Below, piece after piece: positions 41,519 to 63,557 of a DNA stretch of 64,000 bases (the stretch's first letter is position 1; every line of letters begins with the position of its first letter). Made by a program: the position numbers and the translations under genes. Origin of the DNA: Acidobacteriota bacterium (lineage in GTDB: Bacteria; Acidobacteriota; UBA6911); the NCBI GenBank assembly GCA_012719355.1, contig JAAYAM010000018.1, positions 35,758 through 99,757 of the forward strand. The letters are read 5' to 3'. A model generated the notes under the pieces. It did no database searches, was not told where the DNA came from, and worked only from the letters and a program-made list of their open reading frames with translations.

Positions 41519-41531
41519 TACGGGACGTCAG

Positions 41532-45028: not shown

Positions 45029-48000
45029 ATGACGTATCAAGGACGTATGAAGAAGCGCTGGATCAGATTTGCCCTCTTACTGCCCGCATCACTTGTCGCC
45101 ATCCTGGTGGCATTTCTGCTATTTGTCCAGACTCCGTTCGCGGGACGGCTGATCGCCCGTCAGGTCCGCAGCTATCTGATCGAAAAGTACGGTGCCGATC
45201 TGCGGTGCACGGGACTCAGACTGAACCTCCTGAACACTTCCGTCGAGATCGACGATGTTGCAGTTCATTCCACTTCTACGCCGGGACTGCCGCCTGTTTT
45301 TCAGGCCGACACGGTTCGGGTGAAAGTCGGACTGGGCGGCATCCTGCGTGGAGTGACCGATCTCGAGCGGATTGAAATTGGGAGACCGCAGGTCAGCTAC
45401 GTTATCGGGAAAGACGGCCGAAGCAACATCCCTGAAATTCCTCCCTCTTCGGGCGAAAAGACTTCGCGGTTCCTCATCTCCCAGGCGATCGCCGAGAACG
45501 GATCGTTCCGGTATGAAGATGCCCGTGACGCCACTACCGTGATCTTTCCTTACTGGCAACTGTCGATCGCCGGAAATCGCGAGACGTTCGATCATGAAAT
45601 CAGCCTCACGGCGGGCCCTGTGGAGAAATTCCAGATTCAGGGACGTGTGATCCCGCTCGAAAGCTTAACGTTTTCGGGGCTCCTGCAGCCGGATGATCTC
45701 AGGATCAGGCTCGCCGAATTCCGTTTTCCCGGATCGATTGTAGCTGTATCCGGATCCATCACCGACTTGGATGCCCCCGGACTGGAACTGCAAATCAGCC
45801 CGGATCTTGATCTCGGCAGAATTATCAGCAGCGCGGGACTAAACTGGCCCGTTAAGGGGCGTGTTGCCGGCACCATCTCGGTTGTCGGCGCTTCCACCGC
45901 TCCTTCCATCAATGGACGACTGACGGGACGCAATATCGACGCCGGCCGCTACCGCAAAACCCGGTTCGATCTCCGGACCTCGGCAGAGATCACTTCAGAA
46001 GAGATTCTCCTCCGCGATGTCCGCCTTGTATCTCCGGAGGGCTCTCTGAACGCCAGCGGACGATTGTCCCTGTCACCTGAAGGTTCCAGTACCCTCGATG
46101 TCGGGATCAGGGACTTCAACCTGTACGGACTCGGGAAACAGCTCGATGCGCCGTTTGATATCGCAAGCCTTGTGACGGGAAGGGTCGCGCTGCGCTGGAA
46201 GGGGGCTTTCGCTCTTTCCCGAATCCGCGCAAATGCCAACCTCGACATGAGGACCTCGACAGACGTGCATGCTCCTGATCTTCTGCCGCTTTCCGGGACG
46301 CTGCATGCCAGGATGCAGTCAGACCGCATCGACGGTGAACTCCGGGACTTTTCGGTGATGGGGAGCCGTATCGCCGGCAGCTTTTCGCTCGATTCGCTGG
46401 AAACGCTGCAGGCTAATCTTGAAGGAACGATACCGGAAATTGATTCGACTGCGGCCCGCCTTGCGAAATTCCTCGGCGACTCGGGCGACGATCTCGCCGG
46501 ACTGGAACTCGGCGGAGCCGCCCATTTTCAAGTCCAGGCCGCAGGGCAGCTGCAAAACCCTGCCCTCACGGTCTCACTCGAAGCTTCTGAGCTGCGGGCA
46601 AGCGAATTCAAACACCTCAAGGCGCAGGTTAACGCCGCCATCGAAGGCCCTCACATTGAACTCGATACTGCGGTGACGTTTCCCCAGGAATCCACTCTGA
46701 ACGCACATGCGACTTTGGACACGCAGGGGGAGAAGACCCTGCTGGACTTGAACGCCTCCATCCGGGCAATGCCTGTCTTGTCGTTGCTGGCATCTCTGGA
46801 AAAAGACATCGAAGGATCCGGGACTTTCACCTCGGAATTGCACGTCAGCGGACCGATGGATGCCCCCGAGGCAAGCCTTGAGGTCACGAGCGATCCTATC
46901 TGGATAGAAGAGCAGCCTGTCGGGCAACTTGATCTTGCGTTGCACCTCTCCGAGGGCCGGCTCCGGTCCGAGCGGTTCCGAATCGTGAGAGACCGGACGG
47001 ATCCTGACCAGGACTATCTCGACGCGCGCATCACGTACGTTCCGAAATCGAGAGAATTCAGTTTCCAGGCAAACGGCAAGGCGCTCGACATGGGTCGGCA
47101 TACCTTCGGAGGGACAAAGGTAGAGGGCAGGATCAACCTCACGGCGTCTGGAAAAGGAACGATCGATAACCCGTCCATCGCAGCGGTGATCGAATCAGAC
47201 GACATCCGGGTACAGCAGAGATCGCTCGGGCCTGTGACCGTCACGGCTGACTTGTTGAACCAGGATCTGTCCGTCAAAACGACGGCGCCGCGCCTGAACC
47301 TTGCGTCGAACGTCCATATGGAGAACCGATCACCTTTCCCGTTCCAGGGTTCGGTGGAAGCCCGGAACCTTCAATTGGCGCTCTTCGAAATCGGGCTCGC
47401 GAAAGATGAATTGCTGGCCGGAGCCATCTCCGCCCTGGTCAAGGGTTCGGGAAACCTGGAGGATCTGTCCAAATCACGAGTTACGGCGCACATCGAGAAT
47501 GTGCATCTGGAAAGCGGCGCACTCAAGATAAACAGCCAGGGCCCGATAGATGCCGAATACCGGGACAACACGATCGAATTGAAGCGGCCGGCGATCATAG
47601 CAAGCGGAGATTCACGACTCGAATTGGCCGGCAGAGTGCCGCTTGAGAAGTCGAGTTCAGAGGGAACCCTGACCATCAGGGGAGAGATCGATCTTGAGCA
47701 GGCTGCCGGCTTTCTGCCTCCCCAACGGCAACTCGCTGCAGCGGGAAAGATGTATCTCAATGTGGCACTCTCGGGTGCCATGGATTTTCTGGCCGCTGCA
47801 GGAGTAATCACGGTACAGAACGGGCGTCTGCAGCATGCCGGTCTGCCGGTACCGCTGACGGGGATTGAAATCAGGAGTGCCATCGAGGGCGGTGCCCTGA
47901 CGCTGCAGAGAGCCGAGGCGAGTTTTGGAGAGGCGGCGATCAGCGCTAGAGGAGAGTTGCCGTTCGGTTTGCTGCCAGGGAATCTGCCGGTGCAGTTCTA

Positions 48001-51000
48001 CCGCAAGCAGGGTCCTGCGCAGCTTGTGCTCGACGTTGACAACCTCAGGCCCGAAGCTACGGAAATGCTTCCGGAAGGAATCAGCGGCCTTCTCTCGCTG
48101 CACGCAGAAGGAGAAGCGAAAAGTTTTGACCTGGAGGGAATCAGGGCAACTGCGGCCTTCCAGGACCTGCGCTTCAAAGCCAATCAGATCGAGATAGCAC
48201 AGCAGGGGGCATCCACGATCGTGCTGCAAGACGGAGTCGCCTCCGTCGCCCGATTCACGCTGACGGGGACAGGAACGAATATTGACATCACCGGTTCATT
48301 CGGACTCCTTCCCGGAAGCCCTGTGGATCTCAGGCTTGCGGGCGACTTCAATGCCGGATTGCTCACATTCGTCGACCAGAATCTCAAGGCCGCCGGAAGA
48401 ACGGACGTCAGGGTGGTGGTCGGTGGAACCCGGGAGGATCTGAAATTTGCGGGGATCGCGGAGATGAACGGAGGCCGGGTCACGCTTGTGAGTCCGCGGC
48501 TTGTCGCCGACAGCCTGACCGTAAGGTTGAGCCTTACTCCGGAACAGCTGACTCTCCAGGAGTTGAAGGGAACGCTCAACGGCGGTTCCGTTACGGCCGA
48601 AGGCACGGTCGCATCAAAGCGAAGCACCTTTGATGACTTCGACCTCAAAATGCGTGTTCAGGATGTTTTCTTCGACTATCCGCAAGGGCTGAAATCATCC
48701 TCGAGCGGCGATCTCACATTTACCTCACAGGATGACTTCCTTGTTGTAGGCGGGACTGTCCGGATACAGGAGAGTTCGTACCGGGAAGACTTCACAGTCA
48801 CCGGACAGCTGATGAATTTTCTCAAGTCACAGGGTTTCGAAGAAGAAGTGGAACCAAACCCGTTTCTGGACCGCATCCGTTTCAACGTTGCGGTCAGGAC
48901 CGTCACGCCGCTCCAGGTGCAGAACAATGTGGCGAGCATAGAAGCCACGGCAAATCTGAGGCTTGTCGGAACCGTTAACGACCCGTCGGTCACCGGCAGG
49001 ATAACCCTGAACGAAGGGGGCGAGATAATATTGAACAATCGGTCGTACTTTCTCGACCGCGGCAGCATAACCCTGACCGATCAAACACGGATAAGGCCGG
49101 AACTGGACCTGCAGGCCCAAACCAAGGCCCACGATTATCAGATAATTCTTGAACTGACAGGCACGCCGGACAAACTCACGACAACGTTGCGGGACGAATC
49201 GCAGGTACTGACGGAGCGACAGATCATCTCGCTCCTCCTTACCGGCAAGACCGACACCGACACCCAGGACACGGGAGCGAACGGAACCTCCACCGCCGGA
49301 AGCACGATGAAGACTCAGGCGCTTTCGCTTTTGGCCGGACAGGCGGGAGAACAGCTCACCCGTGAAGCACGGCAGGCGCTACGCCTCAGCACGTTCAGAA
49401 TAGACCCGGGAATGATCCAGTCCGAATCCGAGACAGCCGGACCCAGACTTACGCTCGGGGATGACATAACCAGCAAGCTCGGCATCCTTTACTCCATGAG
49501 CCTGGAAGGCGGCGGCAAAGAGATTGTCAGCGCCCGCTACGATATCGCACGCAGGCTTAGTGTGCAGACTACGAAACAGGAAGACAACATCTTCAGGTTC
49601 CAGATGCTTCACGATCTGCGCTTCGGTGGTGCCACAAGGCAAAGATCGGGCGGCCAGAGACGGGAGAGATTCGAGATCGGGTCAATAGAGTTCAAAAGCC
49701 CCACCCCCTCGGAAACGCTGCTGGGCAAGTTCAAGGCAAAGCCCGGAGACAAGTATGATTTTCCGAAGATCCAGAAGGGACTGGATAATCTGCAGGAGTA
49801 CTACAGAGCCGAGAAGCGGCTCGAAGCAGACATCCGGCTTGAAAGAGAGACCAGCCGGAACAAGGTCAATCTGGATATCTCGGCTGTCCCCGGGCCGGTC
49901 GTGTCGTTCGTTTTCGAAGGCGTGCCCCTGCCGCAGCGTCTGAAAAAGGAGGTCGAGGAAGCCTGGACAAGCGGCGTGTTCGATGTCGAACGACTTGACG
50001 ATGCGGTCAGCGCAATACGCTTCTATCTGCTCAGCGAGGGTTACCTGCAGGCGGCAATCTCTCACAGGATCGAAACCGACACCGACAGCAAGACCGTTTA
50101 TTTCAACGTCGAGCCCGGAGTGCGCTATGCCGGAGTCTCCAGGATTTTCCCCGGAGCTTCGCGCATCAAGGACTGGGTTTTGAACGAAGCTATCGACCGG
50201 GCCGGTCTTGGAATGGACGTTTACACGAATCCACGTAAGGTCTCCGATTTTCTCAAACGATACTATCAGCAGCGTGGCTATCTTCAGACAAAGGTGAGCC
50301 TTCCCCTGCCCGAACTCGACCCGGAAACCGGAACCGGTAAGGTCGTCATAACGATCGACGAAGGGCCCCAGTTTCTGGTTGGCGAACTGGAGTTCACCGG
50401 AAACGCCTCTTTCGAGTATGACGAACTCTGGAGCATCATTCCCACGTCGATCGGGAGCATCTTTAATACCGGCAGCATGCAGGATGCAGTGAAGGCGCTG
50501 GAGGATTTTTACCGTGCACGGGGCTACAATGAAGTCACCGTAACATACCGCGTTTCGCATGATCCTGCGAAGGCACTTGCTAATGTCCTCTTCCAGATCA
50601 CCGAGCGCAGGAAGTCCGTCATCCGCGAAATCGTGGTGGAGGGAAATCAGAGAACGAGCCAGAGCTTTGTCCTTAGCCAGCTGGACTTCCAGGTCGGAGA
50701 CGTGCTCGATGTCGCAAAAATCAACGAGAGCAGGAGGCGTTTCTACGCCACGCGAGTATACAGCTCGGTCGATTTTATAACAGAGGAGACACCGGGCGCC
50801 CAGAATCCACAGGTGAAGAACGTCCGCATCCGCGTAAGACTCCGGGAAGTCCAGCCCTACCGGTTCCAGTACGGCTTCCTCGTTGATACCGAGGGAAAGC
50901 GGGGGGGCTTGGTGGAGCTTCAGAATCTCAACTTACTGGGGAGAGCCTCGGCTCTCGGAATGAGGTTGCGGATTGATTCCGAGTTCAAGGAAGGCCGGCT

Positions 51001-51925
51001 CTACTTCAGCCAGCCGTTTGTGACAAAAATCCATCTCAAAATGGACGCTACGGCGTTTTACCAGGAAGAGAGCCGTGACAGCTTCTGGGCAAGAAGGATA
51101 GGCTTTTCCATATTCAGGGAAAAAGAGCTTCCCGGGAACATGGTTCTCAACTACGGATACCGCTACGACAATGTCAAATGGAGTGACGACTTCTCGCCGG
51201 ATCCTACCATCTTCCATGCGGATGTTCCGGTAGCACGCCTGATTACTTCGATAACGCGCGATACGCGCGACAGCGCTCTGGACGCCACCCGCGGAGACTT
51301 CACATCCCATAGTATGGAGTTCGGACCGAAGTGGCTGGGATCTGACATCGGATTCGCCCGCTACTACGGTCAGTTCCTCAAGTATGTGCCGCTCGAGAAG
51401 TACTTCGGGATGCGCACGGAAGATGAAGAGGGGAAGCCTGTGCCGAGCTCTTTCGTTTTTGCCAGTGCGCTGCGGCTGGGACTTACGTCCGCCTTCGGCT
51501 CCCCACCCCCGGACGATCCGTCACCTATCATTTCGCCCGAACGCTTCTTTGCCGGCGGCGGGACCACAATGCGTGGCTTCCCGCAGGATCTTCTGGGCCC
51601 CACCGAAATCGTGCCCGTCAAGAAGGAGGATGGAACAATCAAACCCGTGGAAAAGCCGAAAGGAGGGGAGGGGCTCTTCCTGTTCAACAACGAATTACGT
51701 TTTCCGCTCTTCAGCATCTTCCAGGGAGTGGTCTTCCTTGACGTCGGCAATGTCTACCCACGGCTCGCCGATTTCGACTTCACGCTGCGGAAGACGGCAG
51801 GAGCAGGGCTCCGGGCCAAGATCAAGTTCATTCCCCTTCGCTTCGATTATGGCTGGAAACTCGATCGCCTCAGGCCGGGCGAGAGCGCGGGCGAGTTCTT
51901 CTTCAGTATCGGGCAGGCTTTCTAG
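45029..51925 (+). CDS. Giant fusion protein: TamB/AsmA-like translocation-and-assembly module protein fused to a 5-POTRA Omp85/BamA-type outer-membrane beta-barrel
   Basis: The N-terminal anchor is WIRFALLLPASLVAILVAFLLF. About 1500 aa of repetitive beta-rich sequence end in a DUF490/TamB-type block (NDPSVTGRITLNEGGEIILNNRSYFLDRGSITL...ILELTGTPDKLTTTLRDESQVLTERQIISLLLTGKT). After a Gly/Arg linker (about 49630-49665) come five POTRA-like repeats (about 49670-50850). An Omp85 barrel follows (about 50850-51925), ending ...FFFSIGQAF*. Confidence 0.85.
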   Translation: MTYQGRMKKRWIRFALLLPASLVAILVAFLLFVQTPFAGRLIARQVRSYLIEKYGADLRCTGLRLNLLNTSVEIDDVAVHSTSTPGLPPVFQADTVRVKVGLGGILRGVTDLERIEIGRPQVSYVIGKDGRSNIPEIPPSSGEKTSRFLISQAIAENGSFRYEDARDATTVIFPYWQLSIAGNRETFDHEISLTAGPVEKFQIQGRVIPLESLTFSGLLQPDDLRIRLAEFRFPGSIVAVSGSITDLDAPGLELQISPDLDLGRIISSAGLNWPVKGRVAGTISVVGASTAPSINGRLTGRNIDAGRYRKTRFDLRTSAEITSEEILLRDVRLVSPEGSLNASGRLSLSPEGSSTLDVGIRDFNLYGLGKQLDAPFDIASLVTGRVALRWKGAFALSRIRANANLDMRTSTDVHAPDLLPLSGTLHARMQSDRIDGELRDFSVMGSRIAGSFSLDSLETLQANLEGTIPEIDSTAARLAKFLGDSGDDLAGLELGGAAHFQVQAAGQLQNPALTVSLEASELRASEFKHLKAQVNAAIEGPHIELDTAVTFPQESTLNAHATLDTQGEKTLLDLNASIRAMPVLSLLASLEKDIEGSGTFTSELHVSGPMDAPEASLEVTSDPIWIEEQPVGQLDLALHLSEGRLRSERFRIVRDRTDPDQDYLDARITYVPKSREFSFQANGKALDMGRHTFGGTKVEGRINLTASGKGTIDNPSIAAVIESDDIRVQQRSLGPVTVTADLLNQDLSVKTTAPRLNLASNVHMENRSPFPFQGSVEARNLQLALFEIGLAKDELLAGAISALVKGSGNLEDLSKSRVTAHIENVHLESGALKINSQGPIDAEYRDNTIELKRPAIIASGDSRLELAGRVPLEKSSSEGTLTIRGEIDLEQAAGFLPPQRQLAAAGKMYLNVALSGAMDFLAAAGVITVQNGRLQHAGLPVPLTGIEIRSAIEGGALTLQRAEASFGEAAISARGELPFGLLPGNLPVQFYRKQGPAQLVLDVDNLRPEATEMLPEGISGLLSLHAEGEAKSFDLEGIRATAAFQDLRFKANQIEIAQQGASTIVLQDGVASVARFTLTGTGTNIDITGSFGLLPGSPVDLRLAGDFNAGLLTFVDQNLKAAGRTDVRVVVGGTREDLKFAGIAEMNGGRVTLVSPRLVADSLTVRLSLTPEQLTLQELKGTLNGGSVTAEGTVASKRSTFDDFDLKMRVQDVFFDYPQGLKSSSSGDLTFTSQDDFLVVGGTVRIQESSYREDFTVTGQLMNFLKSQGFEEEVEPNPFLDRIRFNVAVRTVTPLQVQNNVASIEATANLRLVGTVNDPSVTGRITLNEGGEIILNNRSYFLDRGSITLTDQTRIRPELDLQAQTKAHDYQIILELTGTPDKLTTTLRDESQVLTERQIISLLLTGKTDTDTQDTGANGTSTAGSTMKTQALSLLAGQAGEQLTREARQALRLSTFRIDPGMIQSESETAGPRLTLGDDITSKLGILYSMSLEGGGKEIVSARYDIARRLSVQTTKQEDNIFRFQMLHDLRFGGATRQRSGGQRRERFEIGSIEFKSPTPSETLLGKFKAKPGDKYDFPKIQKGLDNLQEYYRAEKRLEADIRLERETSRNKVNLDISAVPGPVVSFVFEGVPLPQRLKKEVEEAWTSGVFDVERLDDAVSAIRFYLLSEGYLQAAISHRIETDTDSKTVYFNVEPGVRYAGVSRIFPGASRIKDWVLNEAIDRAGLGMDVYTNPRKVSDFLKRYYQQRGYLQTKVSLPLPELDPETGTGKVVITIDEGPQFLVGELEFTGNASFEYDELWSIIPTSIGSIFNTGSMQDAVKALEDFYRARGYNEVTVTYRVSHDPAKALANVLFQITERRKSVIREIVVEGNQRTSQSFVLSQLDFQVGDVLDVAKINESRRRFYATRVYSSVDFITEETPGAQNPQVKNVRIRVRLREVQPYRFQYGFLVDTEGKRGGLVELQNLNLLGRASALGMRLRIDSEFKEGRLYFSQPFVTKIHLKMDATAFYQEESRDSFWARRIGFSIFREKELPGNMVLNYGYRYDNVKWSDDFSPDPTIFHADVPVARLITSITRDTRDSALDATRGDFTSHSMEFGPKWLGSDIGFARYYGQFLKYVPLEKYFGMRTEDEEGKPVPSSFVFASALRLGLTSAFGSPPPDDPSPIISPERFFAGGGTTMRGFPQDLLGPTEIVPVKKEDGTIKPVEKPKGGEGLFLFNNELRFPLFSIFQGVVFLDVGNVYPRLADFDFTLRKTAGAGLRAKIKFIPLRFDYGWKLDRLRPGESAGEFFFSIGQAF

Positions 51926-51997: not shown

Positions 51998-52570
51998 CTA
52001 CTGATAAAGCTTGAAGAACAGGGTCTTTCCGCGTCCCGTGGCCCCTCCGGTATCCGGATCGAATACCATGATCGGTTTGGTTTCTTTCTTGTCCACCACA
52101 AATGCAACCCAGCCTTCCAGCGACTTGCCGGGATCGACTCTGCCTACCAGCGCAGGTTCCGGCACCGTGACCGACGGTTTGGTGAACTCGGTCAGATCCG
52201 ATCCCAGAGCAATCCACTGAAGCGGCGCTTTTCCGATATCGATGGACATCTTGTCACTGACATAGCGTCCCTTGATCTCGAATTTCACGCGGGCGAGAAT
52301 GTACTCCGAATCTGCAGCCGGCGCCGGATTTGTCGCGCTCGCAGCCTTCAGCCGATCCATCGCCTCTTTGCCGCGAACCACTTCGAGAGTGGTCACAGTA
52401 ATGTCGTAGATGTTCGAGCTAACGGAACCGAGTTCGACCATGGACCGCACCGGCGCCCCGATAGCCGCCGGATTGGTCGGAGAGTTGTCCTGTGCCCCCG
52501 CTGGAAGGAGAAAGCCGACGAAAACAAATGCAAACAATACCATGAAAAGCACTACCATTTTGTTTCTCAT
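51998..52570 (-). CDS. Secreted hypothetical protein, DUF4352-like Ig-fold
   Basis: Signal peptide MRNKMVVLFMVLFAFVFVGFLLPAGAQD. The body (ITVTTLEVVRG...YILARVKFEIKG...GKSLEGWVAFVVDKKETKPIMVFDP) resembles DUF4352. The ATG at 52570 has GAGGAG upstream and lies 13 nt after the preceding stop. Confidence 0.6.
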   Translation of the reverse strand: MRNKMVVLFMVLFAFVFVGFLLPAGAQDNSPTNPAAIGAPVRSMVELGSVSSNIYDITVTTLEVVRGKEAMDRLKAASATNPAPAADSEYILARVKFEIKGRYVSDKMSIDIGKAPLQWIALGSDLTEFTKPSVTVPEPALVGRVDPGKSLEGWVAFVVDKKETKPIMVFDPDTGGATGRGKTLFFKLYQ

Positions 52571-52583
52571 TGCTCTTCTCCTC

Positions 52584-54362
52584 TTATCTCCAATGGTCCA
52601 CGGACGCGCTGCCAATGTAACCGAAATCTCCACCGGCCCAGAAGGTGTTTGTTCCTCCTCCTGTGACGACGATCTCAATGGTAGTGGCGGTATTGCCGCC
52701 CAGGGAGGTGAAGCCTGAGCCGCTTCCGGCCCTTCTGCCGCCGCCCTTATAGCGTGAAACCGGAACCACCACGTCTTTGCCCCGTTTCAGCCAGCTCGCA
52801 TAGGGCTCCACTCCGGACTCAGCCTGCTTCAAGGCCGTACGGTTCTGAGACCAGAATAACCAGCCCGGCGTCCCTGTGTTATCCGCAAGGTACCTGGCGA
52901 ACTCTTCCTTCGACTTGTAGCCGTTGTTGGCGATATCGGCGGCGACAATCGGGTCGATAACCAGCGTCGCCTGCCTGGTGCCGTACGAGAAGAAGTTTTC
53001 CAGCCATCCCCGGATGACTTCATGAATCGGCAGCGGGGAATACCATGCGATGTTGCTGAAGCTCCAGCCGTTGAAGAAGCTGACAACGCTGTCGTTCTTT
53101 TTGAATCCTTTCTGCACGTGCAGCGGGGTCCAGCCTGCAGGCAGGTTGTCCTCGTTTTCCGGCATGCAGAGATTGTTGTAGTTGATTGGATTCCCGAGGC
53201 TGCCGAGGTAGGTTTCTCCCGGCTTCCCGGATCCACCCAGGTTCTTGGAAATCAGCGTCCAGCATCTGCCGATGGAGGAATTGGCCTGATTGAACGGACC
53301 CAAAGCGCCGATGCCGGTGTTCATGCCGATCTCTTTGACCACCGGACCGTTAACCACAACCATGCGGCCAAACGACGATGTTGAACTGATCATAGATGTG
53401 ACACCTTTGGAAGCCATGGCCAGGATCGTCGGGAAATACTCAGGCTTTACTCCAGCCATGACTGCATTCACCGCTACCATTTCCACCGTGTAATACCATG
53501 CTTCATGCGGAGGAGACGGGCGCATCTGCCCGACCCACTCATCCGGCTTGCGGCTCGTCGCCTTCAGCATCTCGGCAACTTTCTTCTCGGTCGGGAGAAT
53601 GATGGGATTGCCGTCGGTGAAGTTCTGCTCATGGAAAAACTGCATCAGCCTGTCGGGCGTGTCTGGCGGCAAAAGTCTCGGCCGGGGATCGCGTTTGAGG
53701 TATCCGGACTTGGCGTCTTCCGCCGAAAGCTTCCCTGTCAGACTGTCATAAATCTGTTCCAGCATAGGCTTGCCCGAAATCGGGTCGTTGCCCGCCACGT
53801 ATTTCCGGCACAGCTCCGCAGGTCTGTCCGTGATGGGATGAGGCGTGAAGGTAATCCGCATGTTCGGGATTCCCTTCTTGTAAGCGATGGTCGTGACAAG
53901 TTCCTGGAATCTGCGAGTGATCATCGGTACGGACGGGACTCCCATTCTCTCCAAAGTCACTGCATGGCCGACGACCGCCGGCGCGCAGCTGCTTCAATGG
54001 CCTACCAGAACAATCGATCCCGCAGCCTTCTCTTTGACCTCCTTCCACAGGTTTGGATCATCATCCATGTACATCCCGAACTTCTCGCGCAATACCCATG
54101 TCGTCTTCGGGTATTTTGCCTGAAGCGCGGAGTGAAGCTCAGTGACGAATGGCTTCGTCATGGCGTATTTGGTATCCACGATGTACACAGTCTTGCCGTC
54201 AAGCGTGGGCTGCCGCGGCGCCATCGGAATCTTGCGAATCTCAGGCTGAACACCGCGAGGATTCATAACTACTATCTTCCCTTCGTCGGCCGCCCATCCT
54301 GAGAATGAGGCGAACGACGCGATCAGAATGGCAATCATCATGCCAATCGTCCTAATTTTCAC
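52584..54362 (-). CDS. Candidate selenoprotein of unknown function (two track ORFs joined through an in-frame TGA at 53994-53996; U-x-x-C motif; N-terminal signal peptide)
   Basis: ORFs 53994..54362 and 52584..53960 share a frame. Only TGA plus 11 sense codons separate them. A SECIS-like hairpin follows the TGA. The upstream GTG start has AGGAGG 7 nt upstream, while the downstream GTG has no RBS. Read-through gives ...SIVLVGH-U-SSCAPAVVGHAVTLERMGVPSV... Confidence 0.6.
53960..53988 (-). promoter_or_regulatory. SECIS-like stem-loop immediately 3' of the in-frame UGA
   Basis: The mRNA reads UGA AGCAG-CUGC-GC-GCCGGC-GGUC-GUCGGC-CAU-GCAG. It forms a 6-bp upper stem (one G-U pair) capped by a GGUC tetraloop at nt 21-24 from the U of UGA. 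A 4-bp lower stem sits across a small internal loop. Confidence 0.55.
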
Positions 54363-61818: not shown

Positions 61819-62009
61819 GATCTTCAGAATACCGCACTTTTCAATCAGGATCGCGGCAGATTGCGTCTTTTGCTGAGTCGCAGCTATGCAATTTGTTGAA
61901 TTGGCTTTTGGTATTCTCTATTATTCCAGATTTCAGCTCATGGGTGAACGTGTCTGCAGAAGCAACCAAAACTGTAACTCCACCAAAGTCCAGGGCGACC
62001 GCCGAAAGC

Positions 62010-63557
62010 ATGGCGACCCGCCAGCGTGAAATTTCCATCTCTGAATTCTTCAGCAAGAATCGTCATCTCTTAGGATTCGATAACCCTCAGAAGGCGCTCC
62101 TGACGGCCGTGAAAGAAGCCGTCGACAACTCTCTGGACGCCTGTGAGGATGCCGGGATCCTGCCCACGCTTAAGATCGAAATCCGTCAGCTGGAGGACGA
62201 CCGCTTCCGCATCGCGGTCGAAGACAACGGCCCCGGCATCGTGAAATCCCAGATACCGAAAATCTTCGGCAAGCTTTTATATGGGTCGAAGTTTCACACT
62301 CTTAAACAGGCGCGCGGCCAGCAGGGCATCGGGATTTCGGCCGCCGGCATGTACGGGCTGCTCACGACGGGCAAGTCCATTGCTGTCACATCCCGCACAG
62401 GAGCAGGGAAACCGGCGCATTACTACGAGATCCAGATCGACACCCGGAAGAATGCGCCGCAGATCATTACGGACAAGGTCGTAGATTGGGAGGCGGAACA
62501 TGGAACGCGGGTCGAGATCGAGCTGATCGGGACCTACAAGAAAGGACGCCACTCGGTCGATGACTATGTGCGCCAGACAGCGATAGCCAATCCGCATTGC
62601 GAGATTTTCTACACCCCGCCGGATGCTGCTGAACCATTTCATCTGCAGCGGGGATCCGAAATGCTCCCTGCGGAACCGAAAGAGATCAAGCCGCATCCTT
62701 ACGGCGTCGAGCTCGGCGTTCTTATCAGGATGATGAAGGAGAGTTCTTCGCGTCAGCTCAGCGCCGCACTTCAAAAGGACTTCTCGAGGGTGAGCAGTCG
62801 CGTGGCCGCCGAGATCTGCCATGCCGCCGGGCTCAGGCCAAGCGCCAATCCGCACACTATCGTAGTGCATGAGGCTGAACAGCTGTTCAAGGCAATCAAC
62901 AGTGTCAAAATCATGAGCCCGACGACCAACTGTCTTTCTCCGATCGGAGAAGAACAGATTCTGTCGGGACTGAAAAAAGAAATCGATGCTTCTTTCTACA
63001 CCGCCATAACGCGTGCGCCTGCCGTCTACCGGGGGAATCCTTTCCAGGTGGAAGTCGGTCTCGCGTACGGCGGCAGCCTCAAGAGCGAAGAGCTCATCGA
63101 TCTGTTGCGTTTTGCCAACCGCGTGCCGCTGCAGTATCAGCAGTCCGGTTGCGCCATGACCAAAGCCGTTCTGGGAATTGACTGGCGCAATTACGGACTG
63201 TCTCAATCCAAAGGAGCACTCCCGACAGGTCCCGTGGTCCTTTTCGTCCATATCGCGTCGGTCTGGGTGCCCTTCACTTCGGAAAGCAAGGAAGCGGTAG
63301 CCGCCTATCCGGATATCATGCGTGAACTGAGGCTGGCATTGCAGGAATGCGGCCGCAAACTCTCGATGCACGTCCGGGCGCACAGAAGAGCGGTCGACGA
63401 GCAGAAGAAGCGGTCTTACATAGAGAAATACATACCGCACATCGGCATCGCGCTTCGAGAGATTCTCGGATTGAGCGACCAAGCCGAGAAGGATCTCGTG
63501 GTGACGCTCAAGGACGTACTCGAGCGTAGCCGCTCACGCGAACAGTTCACGGACTGA
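62010..63557 (+). CDS. top6B: DNA topoisomerase VI subunit B
   Basis: QREISISEFFSKNRHLLGFDNPQKALLTAVKEAVDNSLDA is the Bergerat-fold N box and VEDNGPGIV is the G1 box. A transducer domain follows. The start could instead be an upstream GTG within the track ORF (61893). Confidence 0.9.
   Translation: MATRQREISISEFFSKNRHLLGFDNPQKALLTAVKEAVDNSLDACEDAGILPTLKIEIRQLEDDRFRIAVEDNGPGIVKSQIPKIFGKLLYGSKFHTLKQARGQQGIGISAAGMYGLLTTGKSIAVTSRTGAGKPAHYYEIQIDTRKNAPQIITDKVVDWEAEHGTRVEIELIGTYKKGRHSVDDYVRQTAIANPHCEIFYTPPDAAEPFHLQRGSEMLPAEPKEIKPHPYGVELGVLIRMMKESSSRQLSAALQKDFSRVSSRVAAEICHAAGLRPSANPHTIVVHEAEQLFKAINSVKIMSPTTNCLSPIGEEQILSGLKKEIDASFYTAITRAPAVYRGNPFQVEVGLAYGGSLKSEELIDLLRFANRVPLQYQQSGCAMTKAVLGIDWRNYGLSQSKGALPTGPVVLFVHIASVWVPFTSESKEAVAAYPDIMRELRLALQECGRKLSMHVRAHRRAVDEQKKRSYIEKYIPHIGIALREILGLSDQAEKDLVVTLKDVLERSRSREQFTD

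Follow-up and report, generated by a model that had tools for sequence, protein, structure and literature searches.

In the selenocysteine (Sec) insertion sequence (SECIS) of Escherichia coli fdhF, the minimal stem-loop comprises 17 nucleotides (nt 15-31), and its upper helix begins at nt 15, that is 11 nt after the UGA (PMC8659212). The more general bacterial SECIS (bSECIS) model of Zhang and Gladyshev (bSECISearch), outlined in PMC13188914, calls for an upper stem of 4-16 bp that carries a loop of 3-9 nt. At least one of the first two loop positions is a G, usually followed by G or U, the loop lies 16-37 nt from the UGA, and the folding energy is -7.5 kcal/mol or lower. Among the known selenoprotein families, that of the UGSC proteins is abundant in aquatic metagenomes (255 Sec versus 21 cysteine (Cys) forms in the GOS data), and a thioredoxin-like fold has been predicted for the UGSC domain (PMC2398784). 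A 'UGSC/Unknown_1 fusion' was also noted among the GOS reads (PMC2398784, Fig. S1A). In this study, we analyzed a stretch of 64,000 nt (hereafter, the window) from an Acidobacteriota bacterium of the lineage UBA6911 (assembly GCA_012719355.1, contig JAAYAM010000018.1, positions 35,758 to 99,757), in which an in-frame UGA on the minus strand is followed directly by an RNA hairpin. We put the probability at about 0.93 that this hairpin is a bacterial SECIS embedded in the coding sequence of a selenoprotein gene of the UGSC family. This reading is based on (i) conservation of the TGA, (ii) Sec/Cys pairs among homologues, (iii) constraint on synonymous positions, (iv) covariation within the helix, and (v) negative controls. 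On the same five grounds, the central claim of the original prediction, which was made from the letters of this DNA and held that the UGA is not a chance nonsense codon, is upheld. The two open reading frames (ORFs) into which gene callers divide the locus very probably constitute a single selenoprotein of 592 residues. The features on which the argument depends are listed below, in positions of the window.

52584..54362, minus strand: complete predicted selenoprotein gene, with a GTG start at 54362 preceded by a GGAGG site, a TAA stop at 52584-52586, and 592 residues
53994..53996, minus strand: in-frame UGA, predicted to be read as Sec (U at 53996); residue 123 of 592, in the motif G-H-U-S-S-C
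53967..53982, minus strand: upper hairpin of the putative SECIS, nt 15-30 from the U of the UGA, seen in folds, pair probabilities and covariation
53959..53989, minus strand: lower helix, nt 8-13 with nt 33-38, seen in the window fold and unsupported as a selected feature
53961..53999, minus strand: suppressed synonymous variation in codons -1 to +11, from codon entropy

The nucleotides of the hairpin are numbered from the U of the UGA (53996, minus strand), which places nt 37 at 53960. The minus strand around this codon reads GGC CAU UGA AGC AGC UGC GCG CCG GCG GUC GUC GGC CAU GCA GUG. The upper helix is formed by nt 15-20 (GCCGGC) and nt 25-30 (GUCGGC), with five Watson-Crick pairs and one G-U pair, and carries the tetraloop G21 G22 U23 C24 (53973-53976, minus strand), in which G22 lies at 53975 and U23 at 53974. 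This helix was found in both the minimum free energy (MFE) and the centroid folds of 51-61 nt, and its six pairs had probabilities of 0.89-1.0 in contexts of 51 to 250 nt. The folding energy was -9.0 kcal/mol for the hairpin alone and -21.6 kcal/mol for 51 nt. The position, pairing and GGUC loop that had been proposed for the hairpin were thus borne out by the strand sequence and the MFE fold. The prediction had also named a self-pairing of GCAGCUGC as a competitor whose success in the fold would argue against it; given the probabilities of the upper pairs, this competitor loses in the window sequence.

A lower pairing of nt 9-12 with nt 34-37, proposed at the same time, is present in the window fold as part of a helix of nt 8-13 with nt 33-38. 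Across the homologues, this lower helix was paired in fixed register in 45% of the cells, and shuffling of the 5' flank changed neither the energy nor the number of enclosing pairs. The pairing therefore stands for the window fold itself, but it is not kept in register in the homologues and its stability is at chance level, and the lower stem was dropped as a selected feature.

Like the fdhF element, the hairpin lies within the ORF directly after the UGA, its upper helix starts at nt 15, 11 nt past the UGA, and a GGUC tetraloop exposes a G-U dinucleotide (G22/U23 here, G23/U24 in fdhF). The lower pairing looks dispensable in both. In fdhF, the GGUC loop occupies nt 22-25, and the fdhF sequence (UGACACGGCCCAUCGGUUGCAGGUCUGCACC...) was found to be 100% identical in over 5400 E. 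coli genomes; the location that the prediction had given for this loop, and the offset of one nucleotide between the two elements, were correct. All limits of the bSECIS model enclose the hairpin, which has a loop of 4 nt (GGUC), a stem of 6 bp, a spacing of 17 nt (nt 4-20) and the energy of -9.0 kcal/mol. This model is permissive: the window has 2143 TGA trinucleotides, and 4.2% of these precede a hairpin that fits it at -7.5 kcal/mol or lower; 1.8% precede one that equals or exceeds the present hairpin in stability (-9.0 kcal/mol). A stem of at least 5 bp with a GGUC tetraloop at nt 20-24 was found after this TGA only. Taken by itself, the hairpin is only moderately unusual.

Codon entropy was computed over 74 unique sequences. 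It amounted to 0.2-1.0 bit in codons -1 to +11, compared to 1.1-2.3 bits in the flanking four- and sixfold degenerate codons. The two sets do not overlap (Mann-Whitney U=0, p=4e-6), and the collapse is limited to codons -1 to +11. The third positions at nt 15, 18, 21, 24, 27 and 30 were either frozen or covarying, while the flanking third positions varied freely.

Covariation was examined in a gap-free alignment of 125 unique TGA-bearing sequences. In the upper helix, 87.7% of the cells were paired, compared to 8-74% in slid registers. There were 27 cells with double changes against 7.6 +/- 2.6 in column shuffles, and none of 500 shuffles reached 27. Compensatory changes in orthologous loci, which the original prediction had proposed as a check, were found at three pairs, namely 15-30, 16-29 and 18-27. 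Pair 15-30 occurs as six pair types, pair 16-29 as C-G (98 sequences), U-A (7) or U-G (4), and pair 18-27 as G-C (104), A-U (7), G-U (2) or U-G (1); at pair 19-26, G-U alternates with G-C. In loci L135, L137, L142, L153, L154, L159 and L160, the change of Pro(CCG)...Gly(GGC) to Ser(UCG)...Glu/Asp(GAA/GAC) leaves pair 16-29 paired, as U-A.

All five core pairs were in register in 89 of the 125 sequences, which represent eight different stem sequences. The loops of these helices were GGUC (73), AGUU (13) or GGUU (3), with an invariant central GU. In the remaining 36 sequences, the helix has one mismatch, is reduced to 4 bp or is shifted (for example CGGCGA-GUA-UCGCCG, or GACC-GUC-GGUC in the subgroup with the peptide P-A-T-V-G-H), and GU still lies in a loop of 3-5 nt at nt 20-26. 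The first and fourth loop positions (21/24) co-vary among the homologues, with G/C in 61, A/U in 11, G/U in 2 and A/C in none. This could reflect a loop-closing pair or, equally, an improved alternative hairpin of 9 bp (nt 5-13 with nt 18-26), which is the MFE structure in loci L022 and L033, both with an AGUU loop. Across the orthologues, the verdict on the competing self-pairing is therefore divided: it loses in the window and wins the MFE fold in a few loci with AGUU loops, such as these two.

Homologues lacking Sec were used as controls. A hairpin of -5 kcal/mol or lower was present in 106 of 123 Sec types and in none of the eight unique sequences of the leucine (Leu) type. In the Leu clade (metagenome loci L094-L111, L118 and L133), UxxC is replaced by L-D-T-C (GQ-L-DTC-APSVIIFC). 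Since this clade has neither the redox pair nor the hairpin, the C-terminal domain evidently functions without a Sec/Cys centre in some lineages. Not all controls are this clean: of only three Cys-type loci, the first lacks the hairpin, the second has a different one, and the third (L090) retains it.

Several observations weigh against the interpretation of the hairpin as a SECIS. In the most distant subgroup (P-A-T-V-G-H), the proposed helix is broken and the shifted helix has to be invoked. The z-score of the hairpin against shuffled sequences is weak (-0.86 to -1.6); this statistic is uninformative for SECIS elements, because the genuine fdhF SECIS scores +0.10. Unlike in fdhF, there is no bulged U on the 5' arm (U17 in fdhF, needed by E. 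coli SelB), the nearest unpaired 5' base being C14, below the helix, and the helix is composed of 6 uninterrupted bp as compared to 4+2 in fdhF. The missing bulge and the uninterrupted helix account for the loop being one nucleotide closer to the UGA. The comparison with bacterial SECIS covariance models, another proposed check, failed: no Rfam match, including SECIS_2 (RF01988) and SECIS_3, was obtained at E values up to 10 with either 81 nt or 2 kb of sequence. In the positive control, fdhF scored 87.1 bits with SECIS_2 and 36 with SECIS_3, which indicates that the Rfam SECIS models are narrow. In the opposite direction, a covariance model built for the present family matched neither fdhF nor a second site in the window. 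The description of the element as fdhF-like thus holds for the loop, its G-U and the start of the helix, but not for the bulged U or for a link through Rfam or reciprocal models. Judging from these comparisons, the element appears to work like that of fdhF and to belong to a different lineage of bacterial SECIS, outside the fdh-type RNA family.

The Sec machinery of the host provides further points of this kind. No selA, selB, selC or selD was seen in the examined parts of the 64-kb window, and the window contains no tRNA of any kind; no tRNA-Sec was found in 60 related loci, and the flanking regions of related loci yielded no sel genes. Acidobacteria are documented to have the Sec trait, which is common among Deltaproteobacteria (PMC1794560, PMC12013277, PMC5029168), and we infer that the organism is Sec-competent.

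The remaining adverse observations concern the alternative that survives best, although we regard it as improbable: the hairpin would be mainly a by-product of the codons for C-x-P-A-V-V-G-H, and Sec insertion, if any, would be directed by some other feature or by a less strictly defined structure. Four core pairs do involve first and second codon positions of the conserved peptide P-A-V-V-G. As CCN complements GGN and GCN complements GUN, pairs 16-29, 17-28, 19-26 and 20-25 follow from the amino acids, and the protein sequence thereby dictates part of the helix; at pairs 17-28 and 20-25, no compensatory change was observed. Moreover, two methionine (Met) types (L091 and L092) retain a 6-bp helix with an 8-nt loop, and the Cys-type locus L090 (TGC; GGCSTCCPAVVGH) still has a hairpin at the SECIS position. 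The latter (L090:858-911, plus strand) consists of 8 bp (UGUCCGGC-AGUU-GUCGGACA) and scores 39 bits with the family covariance model. A recent replacement of Sec by Cys may have left it behind as a fossil SECIS. Where the helix is partly forced by the peptide, the synonymous positions are the informative ones, and it is precisely these that are frozen or covarying beside freely varying flanks. The compensatory changes at pairs 15-30, 16-29 and 18-27, some of which alter the peptide, also speak against a by-product. Finally, the peptide is not kept in most Cys, Leu, threonine (Thr) or serine (Ser) forms, and the Leu forms have no hairpin.

The recoding of the UGA as Sec was assessed by the conservation of this codon and of the sequence around it. 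The frame remains open for 469 codons past the UGA, up to the TAA. A genome scan with one genome per species yielded 77 related loci, 76 of them mappable, with identities of 46-82%; Acidobacteriota and Desulfobacterota account for most of these loci, and Gammaproteobacteria and other phyla for a few. The aligned codon was TGA in all 76 mappable loci. The genome loci share the motif G-H-U-S-[ST]-C and show no indels between codons -15 and +50. Metagenomes, scanned with a non-Sec relative as the seed, gave 60 further TGA loci, with the motifs U-S-T-C, U-D-G-C, U-D-V-C, U-D-P-C, U-P-G-C and U-I-G-C, as well as 14 loci with Leu and 2 with Met at the Sec position. Among the 136 UGA-type loci (76 from genomes and 60 from metagenomes), none had TAA or TAG at this position.

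An exhaustive search of 50%-identity cluster representatives identified full-length homologues of 540-620 residues. The window Sec aligns with the first Cys of a CxxC motif in P0255 (GHCSTC), P0269, P0266, P0256 (CPGC), and P0343 and P0359 (CGSC), while other full-length homologues have Met, Thr, Ser or Leu at the Sec position. All full-length homologues that were aligned carry the Pfam UGSC domain. The alignment of Cys with the Sec codon corresponds to the standard Sec/Cys-pair criterion, and the in-frame TGA is conserved in homologues with conserved coding sequence on both of its sides, as expected of a selenoprotein gene.

These data also bear on a second, still less probable explanation, that the UGA is a genuine stop separating two genes, one for a 122-aa UGSC fragment and one for a 446-aa protein. 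An ATG is indeed located 12 codons after the UGA, and the database matches respect the boundary: each of the 120 best matches to the whole protein starts beyond the UGA, and those to the N-terminal part (ORF 53994..54362, 122 aa, the part of the gene ending at the UGA) end there. The split into 122 aa and 446 aa was made by the gene callers on every public contig inspected, including 20 of this organism. However, the Pfam domain spans the presumed stop, the 11 intervening codons are the most conserved part of the gene and always in frame, and the full-length Cys homologues are single polypeptides. The stops of 25 well-supported ORFs in the window are TGA (10), TAA (9) and TAG (6). TGA is therefore an ordinary stop in this genome and the code has not been reassigned; a true stop should have drifted to TAA or TAG, which make up 60% of the window stops and occur in none of the 136 loci. 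The least probable explanation of all, to which we attach hardly any weight, is a pseudogene, a sequencing error, or a UGA read as Trp, Cys or Gly through general suppression or an altered code: the database entries with W (P0121) or R (P0136) at this position are fragmentary or frameshifted and come from contigs of ∼1 kb, the same TGA is present on the 20 independent contigs carrying the organism's copy and in the 136 homologous loci, and TGA terminates 10 of the 25 supported ORFs.

If the hairpin is a SECIS, its function can be proposed by analogy with fdhF and SelB of E. coli. While the UGA occupies the A site, ∼11 nt downstream would be held in the mRNA channel, so that the lower pairing would be melted, and the upper hairpin, starting at nt 15, would sit at the channel entrance. 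The C-terminal domain of SelB, in complex with GTP and Sec-tRNA(Sec), would bind the loop G22-U23 and the helix. SelB would then bring Sec-tRNA(Sec) into the A site, competing with release factor 2.

The predicted protein is composed of the following parts.

54291..54362, minus strand: signal-peptide-like N-terminus, MKIRTIGMMIAILIASFASFSGWA|ADEG, read from the sequence and by a hydrophobicity heuristic
53796..54269, minus strand: UGSC-family domain, Pfam PF24696 (E 1.7e-27, 97.1 bits versus a threshold of 25); the match spans the UGA
52587..53795, minus strand: C-terminal domain of ∼400 residues, with no Pfam or PDB relative

The protein resembles the UGSC family in its PF24696 match well above the threshold, its UxxC redox motif and the predominance of Sec forms. 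Unlike the classical members, it has U-S-S-C instead of U-G-S-C and is ∼4 times longer, with a signal peptide and the extra domain of ∼400 residues. It scored 66.6 bits with the NCBIfam equivalog NF041046, below the curated cut-off of 125, which indicates a subfamily related to the classical UGSC (seleno)protein but distinct from it. As in the UGSC/Unknown_1 fusion, the UGSC domain is joined to a conserved domain of unknown function.

A signal-peptide-like N-terminus was found in 71 of 72 Sec-type genome loci with the hydrophobicity heuristic, which is not a dedicated predictor. In the P-A-T-V-G-H subgroup, the N-terminus is twin-arginine-like (MKINRRKLLSL; L055, L057, L059-L061, L063, L064, L067 and L073-L075). 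The Cys forms inspected look cytoplasmic and have no such segment. This distribution suggests that the Sec forms are periplasmic. As a UGSC domain and a domain of ∼400 residues are preceded by a signal peptide, the product is probably a periplasmic selenol/thiol oxidoreductase with a U-S-S-C redox motif.

For the C-terminal domain, there was no Pfam match, and sequence-profile searches of the PDB were empty. An AlphaFold2 model based on a deep alignment had a mean confidence (pLDDT) of 90.5 and a pTM score of 0.88. Foldseek comparison of this model with the PDB gave no significant match (best E 1.2, TM score ≤0.23); among the non-significant matches, Toblerone-fold cyclic amide hydrolases were recurrent (E ≥1.2, TM score ≤0.23). 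With a shallow alignment, the AlphaFold model reached a pLDDT of only 62, too low for a fold search to be of use.

Several genomes carry more than one copy of the gene: there are five in OY761556.1, six in the JASFHE01 bin, and four each in the CAWEJX01 and CAYYTC01 bins. Taken together, the sequences indicate that the fused and apparently exported UGSC subfamily is large, almost always Sec-containing, and split by gene callers throughout.

The gene next to the predicted selenoprotein gene on its downstream side is the following.

51998..52570, minus strand: downstream partner gene encoding a small protein, with a weak, sub-threshold DUF4352 hint (Pfam E 0.008)

A partner gene was present in 54 of 77 loci, mostly immediately downstream, and that of the window is 65% identical to the gene downstream of one homologue. 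The upstream neighbour in the window is gcvP.

Only one other in-frame TGA in the window, at 41530 (minus strand), has long open frames on both sides together with a good hairpin (-11 kcal/mol). This second selenoprotein candidate was rejected as a false positive, because it lies in a shadow frame of the plus-strand XdhC and shikimate kinase genes.

Two further genes of the window were recorded. The first (45029-51925, plus strand) is a single ORF of 2298 residues with DUF748/AsmA and TamB regions, four POTRA repeats and an Omp85 barrel, which would combine a TamB-like and a TamA/BamA-like protein in one polypeptide. The second (61893-63557, plus strand) encodes a bacterial homologue of the topoisomerase VI B subunit, with Topo-VIb transducer and GHKL ATPase domains.

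The SECIS itself would introduce no new principle, as it fits the consensus bacterial model and its loop is that of the textbook E. coli element. Its value for annotation is greater: the gene and hundreds of relatives are listed publicly as two unrelated hypothetical proteins (122 aa and ∼450 aa), and the curated NCBIfam model misses them. When the halves are joined, a selenoprotein family of Acidobacteriota and Desulfobacterota emerges that is multi-copy and probably periplasmic. The more than 120 distinct sequences also form a clean natural data set on the mutual constraint between a SECIS and the coding sequence around it; some of the amino-acid replacements in this set are compensatory for the RNA pairing.

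We consider the odds slightly short of even that this is a large and almost obligately Sec-containing family, perhaps not described as such, which would combine (i) an exported UGSC domain with a Sec- or Tat-type signal and a domain of ∼400 residues, (ii) four to six paralogues in single genomes of Acidobacteriota and Desulfobacterota, each with its own SECIS, (iii) a small downstream partner, (iv) a post-Sec peptide co-evolving with the helix, and (v) genes that are split in public calls. If this is true, then, because of that splitting, the sizes of the selenoproteomes of these phyla would have been underestimated.

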